A DNA stretch of 64,000 nucleotides from Patescibacteria group bacterium. GTDB lineage: Bacteria; Patescibacteriota; Patescibacteriia; 2-01-FULL-39-33. The translations under genes were made by a program, and so were the position numbers. This document shows, piece by piece, positions 12,997-38,023 of this stretch. The DNA lies in NCBI GenBank assembly GCA_041650895.1, contig JBAZKF010000001.1, positions 765,181 through 829,180 on the forward strand, written 5' to 3'. The notes below the pieces were generated by a model. It saw only the letters and a list, made by a program, of their open reading frames with translations, was not told the origin of the DNA and did not search any database. How positions within the stretch are numbered: the stretch's first letter is position 1; every line of letters begins with the position of its first letter.

Positions 12997-13749
12997 TCAG
13001 CCGGGCAGTGGATAGGTATTCTGGGTGATTGTCGGGCTACCCGTTTTAACGTTAGCTGTCCGAAAAACGCTTTTTTCAATCAGTCTTAGTTCGTCAGGAG
13101 TAATACCCTGATTTTTCATTAAAATTCTGATTACCGGGATGTGGGCTCGAGCTACTGCGCAGTGGATGGCCGACATGCCGTTGGCATTGATTATTTCGGC
13201 ATCGGCGTTGTCGTCAAGCAGTTGTTGAACAATTTTGGCATGGCCTTTGGAAGCGGCGAAAATCAAGGCGGTGGAATTATTGCGGTCTGTAAAATTAACA
13301 TTGGCTTTGTGTCGCAGTAACAGTTCGGTTATTTTTTCGTAGCCAATCCAAGACGCGATCATCAGCGGTGACGTCCAGAAATCGTCAGTCGGTTGAAAGT
13401 TGGGGTCGGCGTTAAGCTGTAGCAATTCCTTGACGATTTCTAACCGCTCGTCTTCCTCGCTCCGCTTGGCGAAGTTGCTGGTCAACATTAAGCCGCAAGC
13501 AGCGGTAAGCGGGGTTAAGGCTTTAAGATCTGTTGTCGGATGTTCTTTGACACTGTAAGCGTTAAAATCAAGTCGGAGCGGATATTGGCGAGTGGAACAG
13601 TAATCCGCTAAGTGTTTTAGACTGTCCCTGCTAATGCCCCAAGCGCAAAGTTCTAATAATGCATAGCGAGTAGCCTTTTCGTGTTTATGTAAGTGGCCAG
13701 ATTCCTGCCCATCAGCACTACCGTTTGTCTTATCAGTACTGTTAGTCAT
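12997..13749 (-). CDS. ankyrin-repeat protein
   Basis: Several 33-aa ANK repeats, e.g. 'TALIFAASKGHAKIVQQLLDDNADAEIINANGMSAIHCAVARAHIPVIRILM'. A perfect SD (AAGGAGTG) precedes the ATG. Confidence 0.8.
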   Translation of the reverse strand: MTNSTDKTNGSADGQESGHLHKHEKATRYALLELCAWGISRDSLKHLADYCSTRQYPLRLDFNAYSVKEHPTTDLKALTPLTAACGLMLTSNFAKRSEEDERLEIVKELLQLNADPNFQPTDDFWTSPLMIASWIGYEKITELLLRHKANVNFTDRNNSTALIFAASKGHAKIVQQLLDDNADAEIINANGMSAIHCAVARAHIPVIRILMKNQGITPDELRLIEKSVFRTANVKTGSPTITQNTYPLPG

Positions 13750-13984: not shown

Positions 13985-16849
13985 ATGGCTTCATACAAAG
14001 AATTCGTCGTTTCAGGCGGAGAAAAAAAATGGCAAGACAAGTGGTTGAACACCAAAATTGATCAAGCCGAAGACTTCAGCGTCAAGCCTAAAAAGTATGT
14101 TTTGGATATGTTTCCTTATCCGTCGGGAGCCGGACTCCATGTCGGTCATCCCGAGGGGTACACGGCAACTGACATTTATTCCCGTTACTTGCGTTTAAGG
14201 GGTTTTAATGTTTTACATCCTATGGGTTGGGATGCTTTCGGTTTGCCGGCGGAAAATTACGCCATAAAGACGGGTACTCATCCGCGCATTACTACTGAAG
14301 CCAACGTAACTACTTTTAGGCGTCAGATTCGGAGTTTGGGTTTTTCTTATGATTGGGACAGGGAAGTGGATACGACTGATCCTAAATATTATAAATGGAC
14401 ACAGTGGATATTTTTGCAATTATTTAAAAAGGGTTTGGCTTATGAGGCTACGGTGCCGATTAATTTTTGTCCGTCCTGCAAGACCGGCTTGGCCAATGAA
14501 GAAGTTAAAGACGGCAAATGTGACCGTTGCGGCACAACAGTGGAGAAAAAAGATTTACGTCAATGGATGTTGAAGATTACCGCCTACGCCGATAGATTAT
14601 TGGAAGGGATTAATGAATTGGATTGGCCGGAGTCAATCAAAGCCTTGCAGAGAAATTGGATTGGCCGAAGCGAGGGTGCGGAAGTTGATTTTAAAATTAG
14701 TAATAGTGAAGAACAAATTAGAGTTTATACTACGCGTCCCGATACTTTATTTGGTGCTACCTATATGGTTTTAGCGCCAGAGCATAAATTAGTTCAAGAG
14801 TTGAAAGACAAAATTAGTAATTTCTCTGAGGTTGAAGATTATATTAAGGAAGCGAAAAATAAATCAGATTTGGAAAGAACAGAATTAAATAAAAACAAAA
14901 CTGGTGTGGAATTAAGGGGGGTGAAGGCGGTTAATCCAGTCAATAACACTGAAATTCCGATTTGGATTTCTGATTATGTTTTGGCGACCTATGGCACCGG
15001 TGCGATCATGGCTGTGCCGGCGCACGATGAACGTGACTTTGAGTTTGCTAAAAAGTTTGATTTGCCGATTATTGAAGTGATTGTCCCGGAAAGAGTTGAC
15101 AAAAGGAATCCACCGGTAGACGGCAAGGAAAAGATAGAACGAAAAAATGTCCAAGTCGTTGTTCGCAATCCCAAGACAGGCAAAATCCTTTGCCTTCACT
15201 CAAAAAAATATAATTGGGTTACTTTTCCCATGGGAGGGATCGGTGAAAATGAAGGGTTGCTTGAAGCCGCTAAGCGGGAAGTGCTGGAGGAAACCGGTTA
15301 TAAGCATTTGACCAACGGTAAGGTCTTGGGCGGGCAGGTGCGCGCTGAGTATTTTGCTAATCATAAAAATGTTAATCGTGTTTCTTTCACTAATTTGGTG
15401 CAGTTTGATTTGGTTGATGACAAACAAGATGAGATAGCGGAAGAAGAAAAAGAAGCGCAGAATGAAATCTTATGGTTGGAACCGGAAAAACTGACTAATG
15501 AATTCATGGTGCATGCGGAAATGGATATTTGGCAGGAACGTATCAGAAAAGGCGATATGGCCTATACCGATGTTGACAACGGTATCATGATTAATTCCGG
15601 ATTTCTTAATGGCTTAGTGCCGGCAGAAGCTATTGGTAAGATGGCTGATTGGTTGGAAAAACAGGGTGTTGGTAAAAAAGCGGTTAATTATAAATTACGC
15701 GATTGGGTGTTCTCGCGTCAGCGTTATTGGGGTGAGCCGATTCCTTTAGTGCACTGCGGGAAATGCGGAATTGTACCTATGGCTGAGAAAGATCTACCTT
15801 TGGTTTTGCCGGAAGTGGAGAAATACGAGCCGACGGGAACTGGTGAGTCGCCACTGGCAACTATTGATGAATGGGTGAATACGATTTGCCCGAAATGCGG
15901 CGGTCCGGCTAAACGCGAAACCAATACAATGCCACAATGGGCTGGTTCATCTTGGTATTGGCTCAGGTACATTGATCCGCATAATAATAAAGTTTTTGCC
16001 GACCAGAAGAAATTAAAATATTGGTTGCCAGTCGATCTATATTTGGGCGGAGCCGAGCATGCGGTTTTGCATTTGCTTTATGCCAGATTTTGGAATATGG
16101 CTTTATTTGATATTGGCGTGATGCCTTTTGAAGAGCCATTTACCAAACTAATTAATCAAGGTTTGATTTTGGGCGAGGACGGTGAGAAAATGTCTAAATC
16201 CCGAGGCAATGTGGTTAACCCCGATGACATCTTAAAAGAATATGGCGCTGATACCTTCCGTCTGTATGAAATGTTCATAGGTCCTTTGGAAGATACGAAG
16301 CCCTGGAGCACTAAGAATATTCTAGGCGTACATCGGTTTTTAAATAAAGTGTGGGATATCGGTCAGCAAACTTTAGGTAGGGAAGAAAATAGCGAGGTAG
16401 AGATTTTGCTTAATAAAACCATTAAGAAAGTCGGCGATGATATTGAGGTGATGAGTTATAATACCGCCATCTCGTCCATGATGGTGCTAATAAATAAGGT
16501 TCAAGAAGTAAAAACTGCCAGTCAGGAACAGTGGGAGAAATTTCTAATTATTCTTTCTCCTTTTGCACCGCACTTGACGGAGGAATTGTGGGAAAAACTT
16601 GGCCATACAGCTAGTATTTTTAAAGAGTCGTGGCCGCAGTATGATCCGGCCAAAGTTATTGACACCGAAAAGGAAATCCCAGTTCAGGTTAATGGTAAGG
16701 TTAGAGCCAAATTGGTTTTGCCGACAAATGTAACAGAAGAGACGGCCAAAGCCGCGGCCTTAGCCGATGATAATGTAAAGAAATATTTGACCGGCGAGCC
16801 GAAGAAAGTAATCTTCGTTAAAGGTAGAATGATCAGTATCGTGGTTTAA
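13985..16849 (+). CDS. leuS: leucyl-tRNA synthetase with an inserted Nudix hydrolase domain
   Basis: HIGH motif 'HVGHPEGY', KMSKS 'KMSKSRGN', editing-domain end '[19 protein letters not shown]' and Zn knuckles. The Nudix box '[23 protein letters not shown]' lies inside an insert of about 150 aa (nt ~15100-15560). Confidence 0.95.
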
Positions 16850-16899: not shown

Positions 16900-18627
16900 T
16901 TAAAAAGTTACGATTTCAACCGTATCGCCTGATTTCAGTTTAACTTTTTCAAAGTCAGCTGAATCTACGACTTGGCCATGGAAAACAACTGTAATATCTT
17001 CTGGCTGGTTGTTCTCCCTAGCTAACAATTCTTTGATTGTTATTTCGCTAAAGACTATCCGTTTATATCCCTGGCGCGGAATAATAGTTACTGAATGAGT
17101 TTCAAAGAGTTGCTTGACCAGTTCAAATAATTCAGTTACGGCTTGGCAAGCTTCCTCTCGGATAAATTCCTGTTTTCGGGATAGCGTACCGATTCCAGTG
17201 ATCAATTTGGAAAACTTAAGAGCCATTTCGTCCTTGGTTTTATCCGGATGGACTAATTGTTGCCACTTTCGATAGCCGGCAGTAAGTTCTTCAGGTAGAG
17301 GATTCTTTTTGCCGCAGAGTATCAGCGACAAGACACCGCGCGCGTAAGGGTCATAATCAGCGAGTTGACGAAAATCAATAGAGTTAGAAAGATAGATCTT
17401 TTCTAAGCGGTCAAGTGGTTCTAGAGTTGAAAAGTCTTCTTCCCTCGCGATTAACTCAACTGGTTTGCTGGGTTTTGTATTAGTTATGTTTGGCTTACCA
17501 GCTTGAGGTTTAGGAATATTATCAGCCTGAGTTTCTTTCTTAAACCTCTGCTCAAAGAAAAATTCTATTTCCAAACTTTCAAATATTTTACTGTTGGCTT
17601 GGGCTAGTTTATTGACTCCATTAGTAATTGTCTTTTTTAATTCAGGATGTTTTTTTATACAAGCCATTAAAATGTTGCCAAATATGTTTAACCGCTCATC
17701 CTTAACTCGTTGCGGAGTCTTGAATGGTTTGAGTGATTTTTTTGCCTCTTTGCTGTCAGTAATGGCATAGAGCGGTATTTTATCATCTATAATATGACAG
17801 AGAGCAGTAAAAAGTTGGCCTAAAGCCTCAACCTCTTTGTTGTTTTTCTGAGAAGTTGATAAACCCTCAAAAATATCGAAACCACTTTTTACCAAATGAT
17901 CAATATTGGTAGCAATTGATTCTGGGTTAGAGATATGTCCAGGATACTGTGGCTTAAAAATCTGTTTGGTGATTTTAGCATCTGGCTGAGTCGGACCGGT
18001 CAAAAGCAATTGTCCGGATTGGTGTTCCAATTGTAATTGCAATCTTCCTGTTTCTTCATTGTGGCCGATAAGCGTAACGGTTTTTCCGGTTATGACTTGA
18101 GCAATTTTTATTAATCCGGCCGGCTGGGTTGTCTGATCGATTTTTTGCGCTAAAAGCTTGTCAAAATCAAACAAGACAATAACTAGCTTTTCTCGAATAT
18201 TGGGATATTCCCTTAAACACAATTCAAATAATAGCGATTCCAGAATTTTAATAATTATTTGTTGTCCGTGTATTTCTGATTGGGTAATCAAGAAAAAATT
18301 ATTACGCAGGCGTCGGAATAAGTCTAGAGCTTGTTGCTGGTTTTCTTGATGCAATGACCAATTGATGTTTTCTAGTAGATATGAAACATAGCCATCTCGA
18401 GTCAGGCGAGAAAATTTACTCGCTAAACTAGTTTGCTTTTTTTTGACACGAGCAATATTAATACTTTCAATTGTCATTTCGAAAAAGTTTTTTTGCGCTT
18501 TACACAATAATTCTTGATTATTAAATCTAGCCTCATCTTCGTCGTTAATTGTTCGTAAGGGGTCAGTCCGATTATTATTAGCGATCGGATTTTTCCCAAT
18601 GAATAAGCCGTCTCCGCGGTTGTTCAT
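16900..18627 (-). CDS. J-domain (DnaJ-like, HPD motif) protein with a large unknown N-terminal region and a beta-grasp-like C-terminus
   Basis: 'DYDPYARGVLSL...ELTAGYRKWQQLVHPDKTKDEMALKFSKL' fits the J-domain helices II-III with HPD. SD GGAGGATT is upstream. Confidence 0.55.
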   Translation of the reverse strand: MNNRGDGLFIGKNPIANNNRTDPLRTINDEDEARFNNQELLCKAQKNFFEMTIESINIARVKKKQTSLASKFSRLTRDGYVSYLLENINWSLHQENQQQALDLFRRLRNNFFLITQSEIHGQQIIIKILESLLFELCLREYPNIREKLVIVLFDFDKLLAQKIDQTTQPAGLIKIAQVITGKTVTLIGHNEETGRLQLQLEHQSGQLLLTGPTQPDAKITKQIFKPQYPGHISNPESIATNIDHLVKSGFDIFEGLSTSQKNNKEVEALGQLFTALCHIIDDKIPLYAITDSKEAKKSLKPFKTPQRVKDERLNIFGNILMACIKKHPELKKTITNGVNKLAQANSKIFESLEIEFFFEQRFKKETQADNIPKPQAGKPNITNTKPSKPVELIAREEDFSTLEPLDRLEKIYLSNSIDFRQLADYDPYARGVLSLILCGKKNPLPEELTAGYRKWQQLVHPDKTKDEMALKFSKLITGIGTLSRKQEFIREEACQAVTELFELVKQLFETHSVTIIPRQGYKRIVFSEITIKELLARENNQPEDITVVFHGQVVDSADFEKVKLKSGDTVEIVTF

Positions 18628-19201: not shown

Positions 19202-22200
19202 ATGAAATTGTTTGTTGGAAAGTTGTTAGATTTTTTTTCTTTCATAATCGCCGTGATTGTAATGTTTTTTTTGTGTTATTTTTTGGGTTATTGGGGGTTA
19301 TTCTTGTCGTTATTGGGGGTATTTAATTTTTTTGTTTTTTACTTGCGTAAAACCGATAAGATTTTTCCGGTATTAGACGATTTTTTTATCCGCAAATGTC
19401 TTAAAGCCAAGGATAAACTTAATCTAAAAAGCAGTAATCATTTAGCCAAAGCTTCTTTTAGATTTTGGCATTTTTTATTTTTGCTTTTAACCAGCACTGA
19501 TAGGGGATTTAATAGTCTAGTCGACGCCGGTCAGCCGTTGGGTATCAAATTTCCTCTCAAGAGGACCAAAAAACATCAAGTGGTCGCCGAGTTATATTTG
19601 CAAGAGTATTACTTAATTCATCAGCAGAAAAAACAAAAAGCTTTTTATCAATCTTTTGTCGGTTCTTTTTTTGTTTTCGTTATTTCTATCGGGTCAGGGC
19701 TATTCGTTTCTTTACTTCTACCGTTTATTTTCTCCACTTCCGCCGCTACTTATACTTTTATTCAAACTGATTGGTCGGGAGGAGCCGATACTAACGCCAC
19801 TTCTAGCCACAGTAACGATAGAACCGGTTGGAATAAATTTTATAGTAAAGATGAATACATTTATGCCGGTACCAGTCTAAGCTTGGTTCAGCAGATGACT
19901 ACCTCCACTGATGATAGCGACTCTGATTTTTCAACCGGAACTTTTGATAGCACGCAGACTAATGGTAGCGGTTCATCAGCCGATCTTTCTTTGGCTACTC
20001 AATTTTTACCAACAGATTGGTCAACAAAATTAAAGAGTCATTTATCTTCTCCAACCATAACTCAACCTTTAGATGTTTTTGTGTCTGGTATATATGCTTA
20101 TGTGGCCGATGCTGCGAGCGGACTTAGGGTTGTTAATATATCAGATCCAACTAATCCAACTATTGTCGGAACTTACAATAGTCCGGGAGCAGCTTATGGG
20201 GTGATTGTAATCGGTTCTACTGCCTATGTTGCAGATGGGGGAAGTGGGTTAGCTATTGTAGATATTACTAATCCTGCCAGCCCTAGCTTGATTGGAGCAT
20301 ATACGACTGGGTTTTATAATGCTTATAAGGTTGCCATCTCAGGTAGTTATGCTTATGTGGCTGATGGCGATAATGGACTGAAAATAATTGATATTTCTAA
20401 TCCAGCTTCCCCGTCTTTGGTGGGGACTTACAATACTCCAGGGAGAGCTTACGACGTTGTTGTTTCTGGAAGCTATGCTTATGTGGCTGATAATAATGGT
20501 GGTTTACAAATAATTGATATCTCCAGTTCCACCAACCCAACATTAACTAAAGCGGTCACAACTTCACTAAACAAGGCTCGTGGCGTGTACCTTTCTGGCA
20601 GCTACGCCTATGTAGCTGATGACGACAATGGTTTAAAGGTGGTAAATATTACTGTTTTGGCCAGTGCTTCGGTGGTTGGTATCTATAATACTCCAAACCA
20701 GTCTTTTGGTGTAATGCTATCTGGAAATTATGCTTATGTGGCTGATAATACTGCTGGATTACAGATAATTGATGTTTCTTCTTCTACGGCCCCAACTTTA
20801 GCCAGCAATGCCAATATTAATTATGGTGGTGAAGCCCAGAGAGTTTTTGTCTCTGGTAATTATGCTTATGTAGCAGAACGTAATTCGGGATTTACAATTT
20901 ATGATATTAGCAGTACTCCCTATGTTCCAGTCAGTCAAACAGGAGTATATAATAGTAGCGGCAACGCTAGAGGGGTTTATGTATCTGGTGATTATGCTTA
21001 TGTAGCTGATGATGGATCTGGATTGCAAATTGTTGATATTTCTAATTCGGCATCCCCAAGCTTAGTCGGCACTCTTGGTTCTATTGGAAATGGTTATGGC
21101 GTTTATGCTTCTGGCACTTATGCCTATCTTGCTGCTTATGGTTCTGGTTTGCAGATTATCAATGTTTCTAATCCAGCTAGTCCTGTCGTCGCCGGTAACT
21201 ACGACACTACCGGAAATTCTTGGGCAGTAGATGTAAATGGTAACTATGCCTATGTGGCCGATAATACTGCCGGTTTACAGATAATTGATGTCTCTAATGT
21301 TGCTAGTCCGTCACTGACCGCTACTTATGTTCACACTGCTGGCAAGGCTGTTTATGACGTTAAAATTTCTGGTTCCTACGCTTATATAGCTTATAATGAC
21401 TTAGGCTTGGTGATTATTGATATTAGTAATCCAGCCTCTCCAGCTTATAAGGGAATTTATAATACTTCCGGCGCAGCTCGTGGAATTTCAATAGTTGGTA
21501 ATTATGCTTACGTGGCTGATAGCGCGTCTGGCTTACAGATAATTGACATCTCTAGTTCCACCAACCCGATCCTTATAGGGACTTTCAATACTTTTGGTTC
21601 ATCTGCCAGAGTTGATATCTCTGGCAATTATGCTTACGTGGCTGATACAAATGGTGGTTTACAAATTATAGATGTAGAAGATCCTGCTAATCCACGCTTA
21701 GTCAACTCTTATTTCTCAGTTACTAACATTGAAGATGTTAAAGTTGTAGGAAATAATGTATATCTTGCTTCAGTAGCTACGGGTTTAGAAATTCTTAATG
21801 TTTCTGGTTATGTCTCCTCGGGTACTTTTGAGTCTAGTATTATTGATACTACTTTTAATAAAGAATTTACTAATATTTATTTTGATTCTGCTGTTCCTGG
21901 TAGCACATCCTTATCAGTAAAGGCAAGGTCATCAGCTAATTCCGATATGTCCGGAGCAACTGACTGGGTTAGTTGTAACGCCTTAACCAGTAATCATGAT
22001 CCATCCTCTAATAATTGCATTACCGACGGTGAGCGTTATTTGCAGTATTATCTTTCTTTTGCTTCATCAGATCCGGATGTTTCGCCGGTTGTAGAGTCGG
22101 TAGCCGTGGCCTATTCCTCTTATCCCACTAGTCAGACTTTGGTTTCTTCCCCCTTTAACACGGAAGATGTCAGCGTGATCCTGGGCGATTTATCTTGGAC

Positions 22201-25200
22201 TGAGGATTTGCCCACCGGTACTAATGTTAAATTTCAGCTTCGCACTGCCTCTAGTTCCGATGGCGTCTGGACTGATTGGTTGGGGCCGACCGGAACTTCC
22301 ACTTATTATTCCTCGGCCGACGGCGATAATGAAATTAACTCTTTGCATAATGATCGCAGTGACGATCAATGGATTCAATATAAAGTTTATCTCACTTCTG
22401 CCGGCGATGAGACGCCGACTCTAAGTGATTTTAATTTAGTTTATGTGGTTAATGCGGCACCGGAATTTGAGAACGATCCCACTGTCTCACAGCGAGAAAG
22501 CGACGGATTAGTGGGAATAGCTTATTCAGTAAAAGATCGCGATACTGCTTCTACTGGGGTAGCTTGTCCCAATTGCGTGGTGCCGTCTTTTGAATATTCT
22601 ATTGATGGCGGGGCGAATTGGAATCCGATTACAGCTGGATTATCGGCTGGCGCCACTTCTTCCCTAACTGTTGCCTCTTCAACTTATACAACCTCAACAG
22701 TCACCTGGAATGCCAAGGAACAAATTGATGGCACTTATTCCGAGGAATTCAGAGTTAGAGTTACTATTAGCGATTTGGAAGGAGCCAATAGCACTGCTAC
22801 GGGAATTTCTGAAATTTTTACTTTGGATGTTAAAGATCCGACACTGGGTGATCCGTCAATTATAGTTGATGCTTCCCAGTCTCCAGCCGTTTTGACTTTG
22901 AACGCTTCTGATGATACTTTATCCGGGTTGCAGATGTGTATTAGTTTGGACAACTCTCTAACCAACTGCAAGGATTATGCTACCAGCGACACTATAGATG
23001 GGTTAAGTTCTCCGGATACGGTTTATGTAAAGTTCCGAGATAAATTTGGCAATGTTTCTTCCGATAACGCAGTAACTCCGGAGAAGCCGATTAATATGAT
23101 TATTCGCGATGTGTCCAATTTGGACACGAGTGAATATCAGGAATTCATCGTTTGGAAAGCAGTTTCTCTGCCTTTCCATGATTATAAAATCTATTATTCG
23201 ACTGACGGAGAAAATTATTCTTTACTACCCCTCATTGAGGATCGAGCCATTAACTATTACTTTCATAAAAACTTGAGCGTTGGTGCTACTTATTACTATA
23301 AGGTGGCAACGGCTGATGGCGATGGTAATGTTTCCGCTTTTTCTAGTGTTATATCCGATGAGCCTAACGGCCAAGGTGGAACAGATACTACTCCCCCGAC
23401 AATTTCTAATGTGGCCACTTCTACTGTCAGCACACAATCAGTAGTTATCACTTGGGATACGGACGAACTATCTAAGTCTTATGTTGATTATTCAACAAGC
23501 CCATTAGATCTAAATACTACTGTCGGCTCGGTTAGTATGGTGGATAATGCCACCGGTATCGGCGCGCATCAAGTAGTATTAAGCGGGCTTAGTCCCGGTA
23601 CTCACTATTATTTTAGGGTTCGTTCCACTGATATCGGCGACATTGAAGCAATTGACGATAATGATGGCGGCAATTATGATTTTACCACTTTGTCTGGTCC
23701 GGCTATCTCTGATGTGGCAGTGAGCCAAGTCAGTAATTCCGGAGCGACTATTGTTTGGACCACTAATGACACCGCCGATTCCTATGTTTATTATTCCACT
23801 TCTTCCGATTTGACCAACTCCAGTTACTCTGGTTCAGCCACAGCCGTTACCAATCATGAAGTTGTTGTTACTGGTCTTTCAGCCGGCACTACTTATTATT
23901 ATTATGTTAAATCCGGTGTTGGTGTAGCTAATAATGCAGGGGATTATTATTCGTTTATTACCACTAATGACGGCGTACCCCCGGTTATCAGTAATATTAC
24001 AGAATCGATTATTACCGACGTGGCTGTTTTAATTAATTGGAGCACTAATGAGTTATCCGATTCGGCGGTTTATTTTGGCACCTCCACCGGTTCTTACTCT
24101 TCTTCCAGCGCCGATACCGCGCAAACTACAAATCATGCCGTGGCATTGTTTGGCTTGACCACTAGTACCGAATATTTTTATATCGTGGTATCGGTTGATG
24201 CTAGCGGTAATATTTCTACCAGCACCACCGAATATGATTTTACTACTTTAGAAACTTTATCCGAGGAATCTATCGTGATTACTCGCGAAGAGCTAGCTCG
24301 TTTGGAAGGAGCTGCCGAAGCTGCTGAGTGTCCAGTTTGCCCGACCTGCGGTGGAGGCGGTGGTTCTTCAAACGATACCACAAAACCCATTATAACTGAC
24401 GTTTCCGCCATTAAAGAGACGGAGGGAAAAATAAAAGTTACTTGGAAAACTAATGAAAATAGCAACAGTTTTGTGGAATATAGCGTGGATGAATCTTTTA
24501 ATTTAATCGCCGGGCAATTTGATGCTGTTTCCAATCATACGGTCAGTATTAATAATTTACAGTCAGGCAGTATTTATAATTATCGGGTGGTTAGTCAGGA
24601 TCAATACGGTAATTTGTCGCGGTCAGACAACAAAACATTTGCTTTAGATAGTGGCTTGAATGAAATCAGTTCTTTGGCGCAAACCATCGGGGGAGATAGT
24701 AACCAACTGTTAATGTCGGTCGTCAATAAAGCCGGAGAAATCATCAGTCAGTTGGCTTTAAATGTTTCTATTGGGGCACTGGAAGACGCATTGAGTGCGC
24801 AATACAATTTAATCAGGCAATTATCTAATGCCATCCCGGCACCATTATTGTCCGGCGAACCGAAAGTTTTGGTTACTGCTAATACCGCCACTATCACTTG
24901 GCGAACCGACAAGGAATCAAACTCCCTCGTAGCGATTTCTCCGGCAGATAGTTATGATAGCACCAAAAAAGACGATGCCTATTTGCAGGTGATCGGCAAA
25001 TCCAATGAATTGACTCAACTCCATATAATTACGATTTCCGATCTGGAACCGGAAACTATCTACTATTATCAGGTTAGGAGTCGTACTCAATTGGGCTCAG
25101 ACAGCCGTTCGGAAAATTTTAGCTTTAAGACTTTAAGGAAGGAATTGGAAATAAACACTTATGCTGTGGAAAATATCAGTACGGAGAGAGCTATTTTCCG

Positions 25201-25822
25201 CTGGGTTACTAATATTGAGACCGATTCCCAAGTTAAATATGTGCCGTATCGCGGAGGTAAGCTAGCGGTTGAAGAAATGAAAACCGTAAAAAGTAAAGCC
25301 TTTTCCACAATTCACGAGATAACTGTAAGTGATTTTGAATCAGGTGTGGTTTATGAAATTGAATTATCCGGCAAAGATCCGGCCGGCCAGATAATCAGCA
25401 AGAAAATTGAGACATTTTCTACCGGCCAAGACGATCTACCGCCGGTAATCTATCAAGTGCAAACTGACTCTGCTTTGTCGGTGGGCAAGGAATCAAATGT
25501 GCAGACAATTATTTCTTGGCTGACTAACGAATTATCAACTGGTAAAGTCTATTATCAAAAAGGCGTTGGTCCGGTTGATGAACAGGCTTGGGAGGAAACG
25601 GCTTTAGACAGTAATTATACTAAAAAACATATCGCCGTAATCACCAAATTCGAGTCCGGAATGATTTATCGTTTTAAAATAGTAAGCGCTGATTCGGGCG
25701 GCAATGAAGCTACTTCTAATGTTTTTACTGTTTTAACGCCCAAACAAAAAGAGTCGGTATTCCAGGTGATTATGAATAATGCCGAAGATATTTTCGGTTG
25801 GACTAAGCAGTTAGGAATTTAA
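19202..25822 (+). CDS. giant (2206 aa) cell-surface protein: N-terminal membrane segments, LVIVD-repeat beta-propeller array, multiple Fn3/PKD-like domains
   Basis: Tens of repeats of the form 'GSYAYVADGDNGLKIIDISNPASPSLVGTYNT' (LVIVD repeat). The later blocks '...VITWTTDE..S.VYY...HEVVVTGLSAGTTYYYRV' are Fn3-like. The start (19202 vs M21) is uncertain. Confidence 0.8.
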   Translation: MKLFVGKLLDFFSFIIAVIVMFFLCYFLGYWGLFLSLLGVFNFFVFYLRKTDKIFPVLDDFFIRKCLKAKDKLNLKSSNHLAKASFRFWHFLFLLLTSTDRGFNSLVDAGQPLGIKFPLKRTKKHQVVAELYLQEYYLIHQQKKQKAFYQSFVGSFFVFVISIGSGLFVSLLLPFIFSTSAATYTFIQTDWSGGADTNATSSHSNDRTGWNKFYSKDEYIYAGTSLSLVQQMTTSTDDSDSDFSTGTFDSTQTNGSGSSADLSLATQFLPTDWSTKLKSHLSSPTITQPLDVFVSGIYAYVADAASGLRVVNISDPTNPTIVGTYNSPGAAYGVIVIGSTAYVADGGSGLAIVDITNPASPSLIGAYTTGFYNAYKVAISGSYAYVADGDNGLKIIDISNPASPSLVGTYNTPGRAYDVVVSGSYAYVADNNGGLQIIDISSSTNPTLTKAVTTSLNKARGVYLSGSYAYVADDDNGLKVVNITVLASASVVGIYNTPNQSFGVMLSGNYAYVADNTAGLQIIDVSSSTAPTLASNANINYGGEAQRVFVSGNYAYVAERNSGFTIYDISSTPYVPVSQTGVYNSSGNARGVYVSGDYAYVADDGSGLQIVDISNSASPSLVGTLGSIGNGYGVYASGTYAYLAAYGSGLQIINVSNPASPVVAGNYDTTGNSWAVDVNGNYAYVADNTAGLQIIDVSNVASPSLTATYVHTAGKAVYDVKISGSYAYIAYNDLGLVIIDISNPASPAYKGIYNTSGAARGISIVGNYAYVADSASGLQIIDISSSTNPILIGTFNTFGSSARVDISGNYAYVADTNGGLQIIDVEDPANPRLVNSYFSVTNIEDVKVVGNNVYLASVATGLEILNVSGYVSSGTFESSIIDTTFNKEFTNIYFDSAVPGSTSLSVKARSSANSDMSGATDWVSCNALTSNHDPSSNNCITDGERYLQYYLSFASSDPDVSPVVESVAVAYSSYPTSQTLVSSPFNTEDVSVILGDLSWTEDLPTGTNVKFQLRTASSSDGVWTDWLGPTGTSTYYSSADGDNEINSLHNDRSDDQWIQYKVYLTSAGDETPTLSDFNLVYVVNAAPEFENDPTVSQRESDGLVGIAYSVKDRDTASTGVACPNCVVPSFEYSIDGGANWNPITAGLSAGATSSLTVASSTYTTSTVTWNAKEQIDGTYSEEFRVRVTISDLEGANSTATGISEIFTLDVKDPTLGDPSIIVDASQSPAVLTLNASDDTLSGLQMCISLDNSLTNCKDYATSDTIDGLSSPDTVYVKFRDKFGNVSSDNAVTPEKPINMIIRDVSNLDTSEYQEFIVWKAVSLPFHDYKIYYSTDGENYSLLPLIEDRAINYYFHKNLSVGATYYYKVATADGDGNVSAFSSVISDEPNGQGGTDTTPPTISNVATSTVSTQSVVITWDTDELSKSYVDYSTSPLDLNTTVGSVSMVDNATGIGAHQVVLSGLSPGTHYYFRVRSTDIGDIEAIDDNDGGNYDFTTLSGPAISDVAVSQVSNSGATIVWTTNDTADSYVYYSTSSDLTNSSYSGSATAVTNHEVVVTGLSAGTTYYYYVKSGVGVANNAGDYYSFITTNDGVPPVISNITESIITDVAVLINWSTNELSDSAVYFGTSTGSYSSSSADTAQTTNHAVALFGLTTSTEYFYIVVSVDASGNISTSTTEYDFTTLETLSEESIVITREELARLEGAAEAAECPVCPTCGGGGGSSNDTTKPIITDVSAIKETEGKIKVTWKTNENSNSFVEYSVDESFNLIAGQFDAVSNHTVSINNLQSGSIYNYRVVSQDQYGNLSRSDNKTFALDSGLNEISSLAQTIGGDSNQLLMSVVNKAGEIISQLALNVSIGALEDALSAQYNLIRQLSNAIPAPLLSGEPKVLVTANTATITWRTDKESNSLVAISPADSYDSTKKDDAYLQVIGKSNELTQLHIITISDLEPETIYYYQVRSRTQLGSDSRSENFSFKTLRKELEINTYAVENISTERAIFRWVTNIETDSQVKYVPYRGGKLAVEEMKTVKSKAFSTIHEITVSDFESGVVYEIELSGKDPAGQIISKKIETFSTGQDDLPPVIYQVQTDSALSVGKESNVQTIISWLTNELSTGKVYYQKGVGPVDEQAWEETALDSNYTKKHIAVITKFESGMIYRFKIVSADSGGNEATSNVFTVLTPKQKESVFQVIMNNAEDIFGWTKQLGI

Positions 25823-32186: not shown

Positions 32187-33692
32187 ATGCATAGAACTAA
32201 AAAAGTAGATAAGGAATTAGCCGATAAACCGAGAAAAAAACGTAGCCGTGAGTTTATCACGGTTACCGGCATGCGTGATGTTTTGCCGCAGGATCACAAA
32301 TATTGGCAACTGGCGGAGAATGTTGCTGTCAAAATTGCTAATGATTACGGTTATGGCATGATTGAGACGCCGATTTTGGAATATACCGATGTTTTCGCTA
32401 GGGGTATCGGTAAGCAAACTGACATTGTAGAGAAGGAGATGTTTTCTTTTATTGATCAGGGCGGGGATAATCTGGTGTTGCGCCCCGAAGGCACGGCCAG
32501 CGTTGCTCGTGCTTTTATTCAACATGGCCTATTGAATCAACCTCAGCCCGTGAAGTTTTTTTATTACGGCCCGATGTTTCGTCACGAAAAGCCTCAATCC
32601 GGACGTTTCCGTCAATTTTATCAAGCCGGTTACGAAGCGATTGGTGAAGACGGTCCAGCCTTAGATTCTCAGTTGATTTTGATGGGTTATAATTTACTTA
32701 ATGATTTGGGCATTGAGGCTGTTATTCAGGTTAATTCCATTGGTTGTCCAGATTGTCGTGAAGAATATAAGAAGGCCTTGGTGAAATATTATCGCCAACA
32801 TGCTAAGGATTTGTGCGAGAATTGCGAATCGCGTTTAGTTAAAAACCCCTTGCGCTTGCTTGACTGCAAAGAGCCGGGTTGCCAAGAGCTTAAGGCTGAC
32901 GTGCCTCAAATATTGGATTATCTGGACGATGGATGCAAGAAGCATTTTATGAAGGTTTTGGAATATTTGGATGAACTCGATTTGCCTTATACCCTTAATC
33001 CCTGGATCGTGCGCGGTTTGGATTATTATAATCGGACGATTTTTGAATATTGGTCAGTTGATGATCCTGAAGGTAAGAACGCTTTGGGTGGCGGCGGGCG
33101 TTATGATGGCTTAGTGGAATTGATGGGCGGACGAGAAAACACCCCGGCTTGCGGTTTATCGATCGGCATGGATCGCGTGATAGCAAAATTGCGCGAGAAG
33201 AATCTAGATGTGGCCGAATCTTACCAGCCCGATGTGTTTATTGCCCAATTAGGAGAAAATGCCAAGAAAAAAGCTATTGTTTTGTATGAATCTTTACGCC
33301 ATAAATTTAAACTGTCCCAGGCTTTCTATAAAGACGGCTTAAAAGCTCAACTTGAACAAGCCGGCAGATTGAAAATCAAGTATTGCTTGATTTTAGGGCA
33401 GAAAGAAGTTAGTGACGGCACGATTATGTTTCGCGATATGAATGGCGGTGTGCAAGAGATTGTTGATTTTAATAAAATCGAAACTGAATTGACTAAGCGA
33501 TTGGAGAAATATAGTGGTGATGAAGGAGTAGCAGTAATTGATACAGAAGAGACCAAGGCCGCCCTATCTCATAAGCGTTTCAAACATGATTATGGCGAAA
33601 GAGAAGCGGAAAATGATTTAAACGCGATGGATGAACCGGCCGAAGCCGCTGTTGAAGAGAGTACGGCAGACTCAAGCGGGGAGGATTACTAG
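32187..33692 (+). CDS. hisS: histidyl-tRNA synthetase (with acidic C-terminal tail)
   Basis: Motif 1 region 'GMRDVLPQD', motif 2 'FRHEKPQSGRFRQFYQ', and the class II core with an anticodon-binding domain. Confidence 0.9.
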   Translation: MHRTKKVDKELADKPRKKRSREFITVTGMRDVLPQDHKYWQLAENVAVKIANDYGYGMIETPILEYTDVFARGIGKQTDIVEKEMFSFIDQGGDNLVLRPEGTASVARAFIQHGLLNQPQPVKFFYYGPMFRHEKPQSGRFRQFYQAGYEAIGEDGPALDSQLILMGYNLLNDLGIEAVIQVNSIGCPDCREEYKKALVKYYRQHAKDLCENCESRLVKNPLRLLDCKEPGCQELKADVPQILDYLDDGCKKHFMKVLEYLDELDLPYTLNPWIVRGLDYYNRTIFEYWSVDDPEGKNALGGGGRYDGLVELMGGRENTPACGLSIGMDRVIAKLREKNLDVAESYQPDVFIAQLGENAKKKAIVLYESLRHKFKLSQAFYKDGLKAQLEQAGRLKIKYCLILGQKEVSDGTIMFRDMNGGVQEIVDFNKIETELTKRLEKYSGDEGVAVIDTEETKAALSHKRFKHDYGEREAENDLNAMDEPAEAAVEESTADSSGEDY

Positions 33693-34702: not shown

Positions 34703-37700
34703 ATGTCAAAAGCTTTTGTCCCCATGCAAAAGTTCTCTCGATCAAATTCCGCCTGGGGCGGAAATTTAAAGTCGTTTTTGATCGTGACCGGAAACACCAA
34801 ACGAGCGTTGGCGCTGATTTTGGTGTTTTTTATTTCTTTTTTCGGTTTTGTTTTCGCCAGCTCAGTCTTAGCGCAAGATGCTAATCTGCAAGCCGTTGGC
34901 CAAGCTGCCGGAATCGCTACCGAAACTTCACTCGCCACTTATATTGGTCGGGTTCTACAAGTCATTTTCGGATTATTAGGCGTGATCGTGTTGTTGCTTA
35001 TTATTTATGGTGGCTTCATCTGGATGACTGCCGGCGGTGATCCGGATAAGGTCAATAAAGCCAAGAAAATTATTTATAATGCCATTATCGGCTTAATAAT
35101 AATTTTCGCTGCTTTTGCCATCACCACTTGGTTGATGGGGTTATTTGGTCCAAGAGGCGGCGGTGCGGGTGGTGGCGGAGGCATACCCGGTGGACCGGAT
35201 GATTGGGGTCGTGGCGGTGTTGGCAATGGGCCGATTGAAAGCGTCTATCCTGCGGCCAATCAAACGAATGTGCCGATTAACACCAGAGTGGTTGTAACCT
35301 TTAAATCAAATATTAAATCCGACAGTATTTGCGTTCCTAATGCCGAGGGTTATTGTTCTAATAGTGCCAGTAAAAATATTGAAATTTGTGAGGCCGATAC
35401 AACGGCTATCCCGCGCAAATGCTTGGAAACCGGTGATTTTACCGCTCAAGCTTTTGATGGCGCCAATACAATTGTCACACAAACGCCGAATAATGCTAAA
35501 ACCTTTGTCTTTATGACCACCGGATCCTTCTTGGGAAAGGAAGATAATACCAACCGGGAATTCATGGTAACTCTAAAGAACGGCATTATTGCTTCTTCCA
35601 CCGGCGAATCTATTTTCAAGCTATGGAAAATGGATTATTACAGTTGGTCATTCAAGACTAACGGTAAATTGGACTTAGACCCGCCGCAAATAGTAAAATA
35701 CGAGATTTATCCTTATCCGGATACTGATAAGGATTTGTATTCGGTTTCTTCTCAGTCCACCTTAGGCAGGTCTACCACTACTATCTTGTCTCTGGCCGGA
35801 TTGAAGGCGGAAAAACCAATCAGATTGCAGGGTGAATATTTTCTAGGTCGGCCGCTAAAAAAGGAGTTGACTAACACTAGTGGTAATGCCCCTTCCGGGT
35901 TTAAGGCTTACGTCAGTACGCAAAGCGGTTTTGATCTTGGTGCGGGGACTGCCTCTTTTACCGTTTCCAGTGACGGCAGGACGGCTACTTTCTCCTCTGA
36001 TTCTCCGGCCCCGCTTATCAGCAAGGCTTTTACCATAGTTAATGGCGTAAGTTTTGATTTGGGTAATGGCCTGACTATTGCTGCTGAAGGTGGAACTTTT
36101 TCCCAGGGCAGTCGATGGATGTTCACCGCTGAAACGGCTGTTGCCGGCGATACCTATGCTATTAATAATGGCAGTAATAAAATTAACTTCATTTTTTCTT
36201 CCGATGCTTACAGTAATGGCGCAAATATTTCTAAGACTCAGGTTGGAGCCGATGGCCAACCAGTGACTGTTAATTATGTCGCCGCAGTCAAGGCAAATAA
36301 TATTGGTGATACGTTGGAAAATTTACGGAGTGCGATTGCTGGTTCTGAAGCCAAAAATTCAGTTAATGCTTTCATTGCGCCGATTGGTTTACTTAGATAT
36401 TTGATTATTGAGCCTAAAGGGTCCGGGGCTAATGCCTTAAGCATTGAAAAATCTGCGGCTAATGACACGATGACTGTCAGCGGTGATTTGTCCGGAAAAG
36501 ACAAAGCGCAGCTTAAGACTCCGCAAGGCGCGGCGCCCGATCCTTATAATAATTCCATTTTTTTTGTGACTTTCAATAAAGCGATTAACCCGCTGAATTT
36601 GTCCGATACTATCAGGGTTCAAAATCAAGTCGGTACCGTTTGGACTGATATTGCCGCAGAGAGAATCAAATATGAAATCTCCAACCAATACAGAACAGTG
36701 CAGATGACTGGCATTTATGCTTGCGGTAAGAATGCCTGTGGCAAAGAAAGGTATTGCTGGATTGACCCGTCGGCTGGAATTGCCGCTAAATCAGAGCCAT
36801 TTAGAGTGGCTGTTTCCGCGGCTGTTTTGCAGTCTTGTAAAGGCAAAAGTATAGATGATGTTGATAATGCTTGGTGTAAACGCTGGGGAGGGCAATGCGA
36901 GGGTGATGCTTATGATCGTTGCCGGAAGAATGATATTTATTATCCGCAAGCCGCCTTAGAAAGTACTACCGGTATTACGGATATGGCCGGTAACTCCTTA
37001 AATGGCAATTATACCAGTGCCGTTGATGATAAAGGTAAGGTAGTTGGTGCAGCTGATGGCCGTACAGGTCAAGCTACTGCCGGTACGTTTTACGGTTATT
37101 CCGGTAAAGCCAACCCCTACTTAGTCAACGATACTTTTATGGTTGAAAATGGCGTTGAGAAGCCGACTTATGATGCTAACCCCGCCAAAGGCGATGATTT
37201 TTCTTGGTCATTTTTTATCTCAACTGTTATTGATGATAAGTCACCATTATTATTTTCAATTCAACCAAAGGGTGACCAGCGTTGGGGGCAGGATATTAGT
37301 GAAACTTTCGGTGATCCGATTATTTTTGCCTTTGATCGTTTAATGAATCCTGCAACCCTGAAACCAGGATTTGGTTACGGCGAAGGATTGGCTGATAGAG
37401 ATTTTTATATTCGTTTTCTAATGTTGAATACGGTAACGCAGAATGCTAATCCTGTCGGTTATTGGGGCAGTGTAAAAAATTTGGACGAAGGCGATGTTTA
37501 TGGCCAGGGTTCGGGCGATGGCTTGATTGATTACAGTGCAGCTTTACTTGATCATAACCCCTACGATCAGGCGGTAACTTATGCGCCCGGAGCCGGTTCT
37601 GGTCTGGAGTCAATTACACAGAATTGTTATTTGCCCGGCGCCGGACCGCGGAACGCGGCCGCTGATTCTTCAGTGTTGCCCTCGGGTTGGGGTTATCAGG

Positions 37701-38023
37701 CCAATATCGAGTTCAATAAATGCCGTTATAAAATAGATGATGAATATAATACTGTAGGTTGTGTTACTGATTTAGATTTGACCATGCCGTCTCCCGTTAA
37801 TAAAGTCAACCCAGTTTCTTTTGGTTATATGAACTGCAAGGATATTGTCAGCGCTAAGCCGAATTGTACTAAAACTTGTATGGAACCAATTGCCACCTCC
37901 GCCGATGCAACTCAATTCAAATATGGCAGTTGGGTGATAACTAAGGATTTCCCTACCGCCGACGCTAGTGGAGTTACTCGGTGTTGTTTGGGAAAATGCT
38001 GCGATGGCGCCAGTTGTAATTAA
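34703..38023 (+). CDS. giant (1106 aa) secreted/anchored protein with N-terminal VirB2/TrbC-like (T4SS-pilin-type) helical hairpin and Gly-rich linker
   Basis: The order is signal-like segment, then 'VIFGLLGVIVLLLIIYGGFIWMTAGGDPDKVNKAKKIIYNAIIGLIIIFAAFAITTWLMGLF', then GGGAGGGGG, then a large Cys-containing extracellular region. The N-terminal module is paralogous to that of the next gene. Confidence 0.7.
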   Translation: MSKAFVPMQKFSRSNSAWGGNLKSFLIVTGNTKRALALILVFFISFFGFVFASSVLAQDANLQAVGQAAGIATETSLATYIGRVLQVIFGLLGVIVLLLIIYGGFIWMTAGGDPDKVNKAKKIIYNAIIGLIIIFAAFAITTWLMGLFGPRGGGAGGGGGIPGGPDDWGRGGVGNGPIESVYPAANQTNVPINTRVVVTFKSNIKSDSICVPNAEGYCSNSASKNIEICEADTTAIPRKCLETGDFTAQAFDGANTIVTQTPNNAKTFVFMTTGSFLGKEDNTNREFMVTLKNGIIASSTGESIFKLWKMDYYSWSFKTNGKLDLDPPQIVKYEIYPYPDTDKDLYSVSSQSTLGRSTTTILSLAGLKAEKPIRLQGEYFLGRPLKKELTNTSGNAPSGFKAYVSTQSGFDLGAGTASFTVSSDGRTATFSSDSPAPLISKAFTIVNGVSFDLGNGLTIAAEGGTFSQGSRWMFTAETAVAGDTYAINNGSNKINFIFSSDAYSNGANISKTQVGADGQPVTVNYVAAVKANNIGDTLENLRSAIAGSEAKNSVNAFIAPIGLLRYLIIEPKGSGANALSIEKSAANDTMTVSGDLSGKDKAQLKTPQGAAPDPYNNSIFFVTFNKAINPLNLSDTIRVQNQVGTVWTDIAAERIKYEISNQYRTVQMTGIYACGKNACGKERYCWIDPSAGIAAKSEPFRVAVSAAVLQSCKGKSIDDVDNAWCKRWGGQCEGDAYDRCRKNDIYYPQAALESTTGITDMAGNSLNGNYTSAVDDKGKVVGAADGRTGQATAGTFYGYSGKANPYLVNDTFMVENGVEKPTYDANPAKGDDFSWSFFISTVIDDKSPLLFSIQPKGDQRWGQDISETFGDPIIFAFDRLMNPATLKPGFGYGEGLADRDFYIRFLMLNTVTQNANPVGYWGSVKNLDEGDVYGQGSGDGLIDYSAALLDHNPYDQAVTYAPGAGSGLESITQNCYLPGAGPRNAAADSSVLPSGWGYQANIEFNKCRYKIDDEYNTVGCVTDLDLTMPSPVNKVNPVSFGYMNCKDIVSAKPNCTKTCMEPIATSADATQFKYGSWVITKDFPTADASGVTRCCLGKCCDGASCN

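Follow-up and report, generated by a model that had tools for sequence, protein, structure and literature searches.

A Nudix-family domain forms an exchangeable cassette in the editing domain of leucyl-tRNA synthetases of Patescibacteria

We analysed a 64,000-nucleotide (nt) stretch of a Patescibacteria genome (assembly GCA_041650895.1, contig JBAZKF010000001.1, positions 765,181 to 829,180), hereafter the window, and within it the leuS gene for leucyl-tRNA synthetase (LeuRS). The CP1 editing domain of this enzyme contains a 159-residue insert that belongs to the Nudix superfamily. The LeuRS-Nudix arrangement is found in considerably more than 100 related lineages. The insert behaves as an exchangeable cassette, whose gains, losses and swaps between lineages at one and the same loop do not follow the descent of the LeuRS core. 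It represents a distinct Nudix family that is physically tied to aminoacyl-tRNA synthetases, with most copies embedded in LeuRS and a few in prolyl-tRNA synthetase (ProRS). Taken together, an active Nudix hydrolase cassette that is coupled to the synthetase seems fairly likely to us, and we tentatively suggest dinucleoside polyphosphates (ApnN) as its substrate class.

Few enzymes are as highly conserved as the aminoacyl-tRNA synthetases. To our knowledge, their cores rarely contain accessory catalytic domains, which have been discussed mainly as eukaryotic additions. The enzyme described here would add a second activity to an essential synthetase, within its proofreading domain, and would do so in much of the Patescibacteria. 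A preliminary description of this DNA, made from the sequence only, knew of no described example of the architecture, and we likewise found no account of a LeuRS-Nudix fusion, or of any fusion between an aminoacyl-tRNA synthetase and a Nudix domain, in the full-text literature, which excludes subscription-only papers. Neither a review of diadenosine tetraphosphate (Ap4A; PMC10148737) nor a survey of the Nudix clan (PMC5389931) mentions such a fusion. There is no curated NCBI model or name for it, and the proteins are titled only 'leucine--tRNA ligase'. Thus, a canonical LeuRS and a canonical Nudix fold are found in an undescribed, widespread and unusually dynamic arrangement.

The host LeuRS

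Coordinates below refer to the window, and amino acid (aa) numbers to the 954-aa LeuRS unless insert numbering is stated. The features of the gene are as follows.

13985..16849, + strand: leuS open reading frame (ORF), 954 aa, bacterial-type LeuRS that hosts the insert
14138..14149, + strand: HIGH-type signature HVGH, aa 52-55, synthetic site
14651..15082, + strand: N-terminal four-fifths of the CP1 editing domain, aa 223-366
14729-14746, + strand: TTRPDT, Thr-rich editing motif, aa 249-254
15011-15037, + strand: AVPAHDERD, with H347, D348, R350 and D351
15083..15559, + strand: Nudix cassette, aa 367-525, 159 aa, borders set by the insert-less relative P0014
15233..15301, + strand: Nudix box G417-x5-E423-x7-R431-E432-V-L-E435-E436-T-G-Y439, aa 417-439, an exact GX5EX7REUXEEXGU; putative metal-binding catalytic helix
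15350..15379, + strand: X-loop motif Y456-F-A-N-H-K461-N-V-N-R465; putative substrate-specificity element
15560..15676, + strand: remainder of CP1 after the insert, aa 526-564, ending ...GVGK
16172..16201, + strand: GEDGE and the KMSKS catalytic loop, with GEDGE in place of the leucine-specific domain

The whole protein scores 1075.6 bits against TIGR00396 (leuS_bact), above the equivalog threshold of 548.4. It aligns end to end, in three blocks, with Thermus thermophilus LeuRS (1h3n, E 3e-229), and all signatures of canonical LeuRS (T. thermophilus 1H3N/2BYT, E. coli 4AQ7/4ARC) are present. The identical NCBI entry is named 'MAG: leucine--tRNA ligase [Patescibacteria group bacterium]'. In an alignment of 72 LeuRS homologues (A1), H52, V53, G54 and H55 of the HIGH-type signature, T254 of the Thr-rich motif and H347, D348, R350 and D351 are invariant, and KMSKS (aa 735-739) is invariant or nearly so. 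We take T254 and D348 to be the counterparts of E. coli T252 and D345. With HIGH, KMSKS, the Thr-rich motif and the editing Asp conserved, the host LeuRS looks functional.

The leucine-specific domain is missing, as residues 731-735 span T. thermophilus residues 580-637. The LeuRS of Mycoplasma mobile has no CP1; unlike it, the window LeuRS retains CP1 with an intact editing site. Both enzymes have a short peptide in place of the leucine-specific domain, which in M. mobile is the tetrapeptide GKDG, a known variation (PMC3643597). Since this domain is known to vary, its loss does not exclude membership in the LeuRS family.

Boundaries and fold of the insert

The borders of the insert were set by the closest insert-less relative, P0014 (803 aa, core ~83% identical). 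In P0014, LPIIEVI is followed directly by AYTDIDNG (the sequence after the junction reads AYTDIDNGEMVNS); the insert of the window protein starts at this same point and ends IRKGDM. LPIIEVI is contiguous with the post-insert part of CP1 in insert-less relatives. Residue 367 corresponds to T. thermophilus residue 363 and residue 531 to residue 379, so that ~163 residues of the window protein stand against a 15-residue loop (364-378) of the T. thermophilus enzyme, and the remainder of CP1 aligns from residue 379 onwards. The CP1 model PF13603 (218.9 bits) matches aa 223-366 with profile positions 1-147 of 185, and in the insert-less LeuS of locus L087 it is matched unbroken from 1 to 185. The interruption at ~147 of 185, together with the ~40 CP1 residues that resume afterwards, shows that the insert lies within CP1, close to the C-terminal end of that domain. 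No LeuRS that has been solved or described is known to contain an enzyme domain in CP1.

These results refine the preliminary description in two respects. It had given the insert as 15100-15560, of which the 3' end stands and the 5' end is ~17 nt off, and it had placed the insert behind the editing domain; the insert is indeed in frame in an otherwise complete LeuRS, and it lies inside CP1. HIGH, KMSKS, the editing-domain stretch ending at aa 366 and the other motifs quoted there are all located where they had been reported, including the exact Nudix box at nt 15233-15301. The domain scan and the alignment to T. thermophilus LeuRS that it had proposed recover both a bacterial LeuRS and a Nudix domain, inserted in the 363-379 loop.

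The Pfam model NUDIX (PF00293) matches aa 386-507 with 48.9 bits (E 8.5e-13) in the whole protein, and the excised insert scores 53.4 bits; with a gathering cut-off of 21.1, this is far beyond a chance motif. AlphaFold2 predicts the full-length protein with a mean pLDDT of 90.6 and a pTM of 0.79 from the full-length alignment, the insert region reaching ~90-94. Modelled alone, the insert (pLDDT 93.0, pTM 0.86) forms a strand-rich sandwich with the box on helix 60-72, and the predicted model shows the alpha/beta/alpha Nudix sandwich with the box on its loop-helix-loop. The earlier view that a whole Nudix fold is present, and not a stray motif, is thus borne out by both the domain match and the model. 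Membership in the Nudix superfamily is secure, although membership in a subfamily is not. The CP1 surface loop holds a complete, folded and probably catalytically active Nudix pyrophosphohydrolase domain.

Distribution of the LeuRS-Nudix architecture

Exactly this loop is 107-169 residues long in 52 of the 120 best LeuRS homologues (at least 128 in all 52 except P0045), and the remaining homologues have 12-47 residues there, nearly all of them 12-25. The same architecture occurs at 53-85% identity in dozens of assemblies in NCBI, JGI, ENA and Logan, and two independent ENA fragments cross the upstream junction. A scan of GTDB, with one genome per species, returned 168 relatives, of which 80 were kept; 75 of these 80 loci were verified as long ORFs with LeuRS motifs. 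Their labels include Paceibacterota, Buchanan-, Taylor-, Yonath-, Kaiser-, Wolfe-, Wildermuth-, Yanofsky-, Kerfeldbacteria and similar groups, and a few are contradictory (e.g., Gammaproteobacteria, Thermodesulfobacteriota). All taxon labels are those given by the depositors of the metagenome-assembled genomes (MAGs), and several are generic or contradictory. Public Patescibacteria MAGs often have the insert, and Pfam already flags NUDIX in them. A profile search of 1.84 billion cluster representatives yielded 174 clusters at E <=1e-30 and 700 at <=1e-10, and complete or fragmentary LeuRS account for ~110 of the 149 best new entries.

An assembly or gene-calling artefact, in which a chimeric contig joins leuS to an unrelated Nudix gene, has a negligible probability given these data. 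The reading frame runs unbroken through both junctions, the same junctions occur in many independent assemblies (among them the 75 verified GTDB loci), and AlphaFold2 folds both parts confidently as one chain. As both junctions are common to many independent assemblies, we rule out a mis-assembly, and we found no support for the artefact explanation.

Conservation of the insert

Of the 52 insert-bearing LeuRS among the close homologues, 46 retain the strict box G-x5-E-x7-RE-x2-EE-x-G, as do 136 of the 166 LeuRS-embedded domain copies overall. In an alignment of inserts (A2), G52, G53, E67, E70 and E71 (insert numbering) are invariant. Outside the box, an Arg before the first strand, the 'HK..NR' motif (K461, R465) and W498 are conserved at >=90%. 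The nearest relatives (P0004-P0007) have insert identities of 78-85% and core identities of 82-86%. The likeness of these values indicates that the insert is under purifying selection of a strength similar to that on the core. Degenerate boxes were found in P0067 and P0076 (E to Q and R to A), in P0029 and P0034 (loss of G) and in P0045, where the motif is absent.

Exchange of the cassette

Exchange among LeuRS genes, the most unusual feature of the insert, emerges only when several sequences are compared. Three observations bear on it. First, in P0008, P0009 and P0010 the identity to the window protein falls from 85-100% to 10-45% exactly at the loop and recovers directly after it. In P0046 and P0060 the reverse is seen, the insert (70-100%) being closer to the window protein than its flanks (25-65%). 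Second, core and insert are reciprocally incongruent in three quartets, of which one gives the pairwise values below; the two further quartets are P0008/P0060/P0042 and P0010/P0080/P0094.

P0003/P0009: core identity 84%, insert identity 25%
P0003/P0046: core identity 59%, insert identity 85%
P0009/P0051: core identity 67%, insert identity 55%

Third, a single core cluster (>=70% mutual identity) contains six insert types that are <45% mutually identical, as well as insert-less forms, and the insert type of the window is found in 12 core clusters. Core and insert distances have a Spearman correlation of -0.03 in a homologue list that was chosen by total score to the query and is hence biased. 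This bias affects the correlation and weakens it as an argument for exchange, so we rely on the quartets and the breakpoints, which are unaffected.

In a codon comparison between the window and locus L002, synonymous sites have reached the same degree of saturation in the core as in the insert. This saturation implies that the cassette exchanges are old, and we make no claim of recent transfer.

We considered several kinds of mobile or foreign DNA as the source of the insert. There are no direct or inverted repeats of note flanking the junctions and no compositional anomaly, since overall GC content and GC content at third codon positions (GC3) equal those of the host gene. NUDIX was the only Pfam domain found in the insert, with no Hint/endonuclease domain among the matches. 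On these grounds, and because the scan of viral contigs gave no relatives, we rejected an intein, homing element or transposon. A viral origin was rejected for the same lack of viral-contig relatives, BFVD and PHROGs giving generic Nudix matches only. Against the defence-protein models of PADLOC-DB, the insert showed only a generic Nudix similarity of 18 bits (E 3.5e-4) to candidate PDC-S07. With no meaningful PADLOC match for the insert or for the neighbouring 575-aa ORF, membership in an anti-phage defence system was set aside.

Other insertions in LeuRS

Several LeuRS (P0123, P0124, P0125, P0126, P0128, P0129, P0132, P0135 and P0259) have two or three Nudix-family copies, which occupy additional sites on either side of the CP1 core and elsewhere. 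Two Nudix-only proteins, P0130 and P0179, contain copies in tandem. At position ~444 of P0014, an alpha/beta-hydrolase of ~195 aa (PF06821/PF00561/PF12697) is inserted in P0027, P0030, P0032, P0038, P0045, P0058 and P0104. It often joins the Nudix cassette, giving LeuRS of 1100-1367 aa, and would place a putative esterase next to a tRNA-editing enzyme. Other in-frame inserts occur in P0028, P0031, P0036, P0068 and P0073 (~444), P0052 (~387), P0046, P0054 and P0104 (~238) and P0069/P0070 (~304); they comprise a ~130-aa module without a Pfam match and modules of ~143-163 aa at two further positions. Among the Patescibacteria LeuRS relatives there is also a GIY-YIG nuclease domain of 94 aa inside CP1. 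LeuRS is an insertion hot-spot in Patescibacteria, and the loop described here is a natural, well-tolerated insertion site that could serve protein engineering.

Association with other aminoacyl-tRNA synthetases

Some homologues in the family are free-standing proteins of 160-185 aa that have a start codon of their own. In most cases they are closest, at 41-63% identity, to LeuRS-embedded copies, which are of various types. We checked the genomic context of ten free-standing homologues, and the following lie with or near synthetase genes.

P0145: 2 nt upstream of leuS, itself insert-bearing
P0197: 3 nt upstream of an insert-less leuS
P0204: 13 nt downstream of argS and ~600 nt upstream of an IleRS-like gene
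P0232: 16 nt downstream of an archaeal-type proS
P0231: 40 nt upstream of a MetRS-like fragment
P0207: in a cluster with metS, where a second Nudix gene abuts an insert-less leuS

Direct adjacency to a synthetase gene was found for 5 of the 10, much more than the ~5% that we roughly estimate for a random gene in an ~800-gene genome. Free-standing copies also occur near genes of nucleotide metabolism (dTMP kinase, dUTPase, HD nucleotidase).

The same Nudix family is fused into a second synthetase. P0251, an archaeal-type ProRS, carries it between the anticodon-binding and C-terminal domains (E 4e-35 to the profile of LeuRS inserts), with a degenerate Nudix box. This architecture comprises five clusters (P0251, P0272-P0275); locus L096 (3-896) is noted together with these. 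The closest ProRS without an insert bear the names Nano- or Woesearchaeota, which suggests that the Nudix module has been exchanged between bacteria of the candidate phyla radiation (CPR) and DPANN-like archaea. The preliminary description had connected the domain with synthetase chemistry, and that connection is strengthened by the copies beside leuS, argS and proS and by the ProRS fusion.

At locus L089 (6094-9648), a 1184-aa IleRS-like class I synthetase has an inserted histidine-phosphatase domain (PF00300). Two Nudix genes flank this gene, and it is preceded by argS, dUTPase, dTMP kinase and a zeta-toxin-like gene.

Comparison with characterized Nudix enzymes

A profile of 37 inserts, compared with PDB sequences, retrieved 2azw, the decapping effectors AvrM14-A/B and Ap4A hydrolases at E ~1e-8 to 1e-9. 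The structural neighbours of the domain comprise Ap4A/Ap6A hydrolases, RppH, DIPP and functionally uncharacterized enzymes with comparable scores. The diadenosine polyphosphate (ApnA) hydrolases (A. aeolicus 3I7U/3I7V, the T. thermophilus Ap6A hydrolase Ndx1 1VC8, lupin 1F3Y/1JKN and human NUDT2) are free-standing proteins of 126-165 aa, whereas the window domain is embedded in a LeuRS loop and is only ~20% identical to them. The LeuRS-insert family also differs from them in an N-terminal extension, 'NPP..GK..ER', and in the 'HK..NR' motif. The Enterococcus faecalis MutT/Nudix protein 2AZW (UniProt Q836H1) is free-standing and comes from a Firmicute, and it permits no transfer of function. Another class I synthetase that has gained a catalytic domain, IleRS with an N-acetyltransferase (GNAT) domain (NF040702), is already curated as a separate architecture and can serve as a precedent; its host (IleRS), fold (GNAT) and chemistry are different from those of the window protein.

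The X-loop offers a hint about the substrate. Y456 lies 17 residues after Y439 of the box, and the window X-loop aligns with 'YWYTLKGER' of the A. aeolicus Ap4A hydrolase 3i7u. A tyrosine ~17 residues downstream of the box correlates with ApnA hydrolase activity (Dunn et al. 1999, in PMC5389931); it is a correlate and not proof. Nudix enzymes have been described as universal asymmetric ApnA hydrolases (PMC10148737).

An alternative is that the domain acts on RNA ends, either as an RppH-like 5'-pyrophosphohydrolase or decapping enzyme (on pppRNA or Np4N/NAD caps) or in the repair of a tRNA end that bears a pyrophosphate or another nucleotide-type modification and reaches CP1. CP1 normally receives the 3'-CCA end of the tRNA, and decapping effectors are among the matches of the profile. 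We nevertheless consider this improbable. The RppH/NudH models (PRK00714) give 15.9-25.5 bits, the best 22-25, far below their cut-offs of 116-259, so the window domain is not an orthologue of E. coli RppH (NudH; RNA pyrophosphohydrolase/Ap5A hydrolase), which is also free-standing. The ProRS copy sits between the anticodon-binding and C-terminal domains, away from the acceptor end, free-standing copies also occur in neighbourhoods of nucleotide metabolism, and no tRNA or toxin gene was found near leuS within the window.

Proposed function

Synthetases form Ap4A and related Np4N when the enzyme-bound adenylate is attacked by ATP or another NTP. We propose that the Nudix domain would hydrolyse a pyrophosphate-linked nucleotide generated by the synthetases themselves. 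The likeliest substrates would be Ap4A, Ap3A or Np4N, arising from attack of ATP or another NTP on the aminoacyl-adenylate, and asymmetric cleavage of Ap4A could yield ATP and AMP. Such a domain might provide clean-up and nucleotide recovery at the source, in tiny genomes with limited nucleotide synthesis. What LeuRS, ProRS, ArgRS, MetRS and IleRS have in common is ATP-dependent adenylate chemistry and tRNA, and this, together with the likeness of the X-loop, leads us to favour a self-cleaning module for ApnN. The preliminary description had suggested Ap4A/NDP-X cleaning or signalling, and either would be a putative role. If Ap4A or Np4N is degraded, this would be the first case that we have found of the maker and the breaker of alarmones and RNA-cap precursors in one polypeptide, and it would offer a direct way into the old debate over whether the Ap4A made by synthetases is signal or waste. 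Should the domain act in tRNA-end repair or hydrolyse an inhibitor instead, it would show that ultra-small symbionts have a new layer of quality control in translation, or of defence.

Several observations speak against an active ApnN hydrolase coupled to synthetases. A degenerate box occurs in ~18% of the LeuRS-embedded copies as well as in ProRS copies, implying that some lineages can do without catalysis. Of the ten free-standing homologues, four are located away from synthetases, and one of these four is 4 nt downstream of fpg in an apparent operon, a pairing that suggests oxidised-nucleotide sanitation. Scores against the curated NCBIfam Nudix subfamily models all stay far below the respective cut-offs, those of the RppH models being the best. 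RppH, DIPP, ADP-ribose pyrophosphatases and MutT-like proteins score equal to, or only slightly below, the ApnA hydrolases. The closest structure, 2azw, is listed with undetermined function (PMC5389931), and the X-loop column is Tyr or Phe across the family, not always Tyr.

The degenerate boxes would be expected if the module were non-catalytic, that is, a ligand sensor, a surface for binding tRNA or protein, a brace for CP1 or a near-neutral passenger that spreads by recombination between leuS flanks. Non-catalytic Nudix folds are known from NrtR and the mitoribosomal protein MRP-L46. This explanation appears doubtful at best. Every catalytic residue is kept in 82% of the embedded copies even though the inserts are only 25-35% identical overall, a pattern that is difficult to account for unless catalysis is under selection. 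In close relatives the insert changes at about the same low rate as the essential core, and the hallmarks of a mobile element (repeats, composition, viral-contig matches) that a passenger might show are absent.

The fpg pairing would fit a generic role in cleaning the nucleotide pool, by MutT-like NTP sanitation or ADP-sugar hydrolysis, in which the fusion only secures constitutive co-expression in a reduced genome and has no coupling to aminoacylation. We regard this as unlikely, since it leaves unexplained the repeated association with four or five different synthetases and the direct adjacency of half of the free-standing copies examined. Furthermore, none of the MutT, NudF and NudE models approaches its cut-off.

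A last and still less probable alternative, which we would entertain only as a long shot, is that the cassette is a rapidly exchanged counter-measure in a conflict that targets aminoacylation, removing a nucleotide-type lesion or inhibitor from its place on the domain that handles the 3' end of the tRNA. Candidates may include a toxin-made pyrophosphorylated or ADP-ribosylated tRNA end, or an adenylate-mimicking antibiotic. If this were true, LeuRS, and in some archaea ProRS, would be self-repairing or self-immune, and the turnover of cassettes, the multiple copies and the alpha/beta-hydrolase and GIY-YIG inserts would reflect an arms race and not housekeeping.

Genomic neighbourhood of leuS

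The family profile gave no further match in the window beyond the leuS insert. The other features of the window are listed below.

12997-13749, - strand: ankyrin-repeat protein, 250 aa, flanking leuS; matches PADLOC candidate PDC-M72A (E 3e-16), probably via its repeats
16900-18627, - strand: 575-aa ORF, flanking leuS; no Pfam or PADLOC match
19202-25822: 2206-aa protein with 13 LVIVD repeats, five purple-acid-phosphatase N-terminal (fn3-like) domains and fn3 domains
32187-33692: HisRS, 501 aa, the second synthetase in the window; no Nudix or other extra Pfam domain detected
34703-38023: giant ORF, 1106 aa, starting with a type IV secretion pilin-like domain (PF18895)
38044-50625: giant ORF, 4193 aa, also starting with PF18895, with Laminin_G_3 and lamin-tail domains

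The 1106-aa and 4193-aa ORFs look like typical CPR surface or attachment giants.

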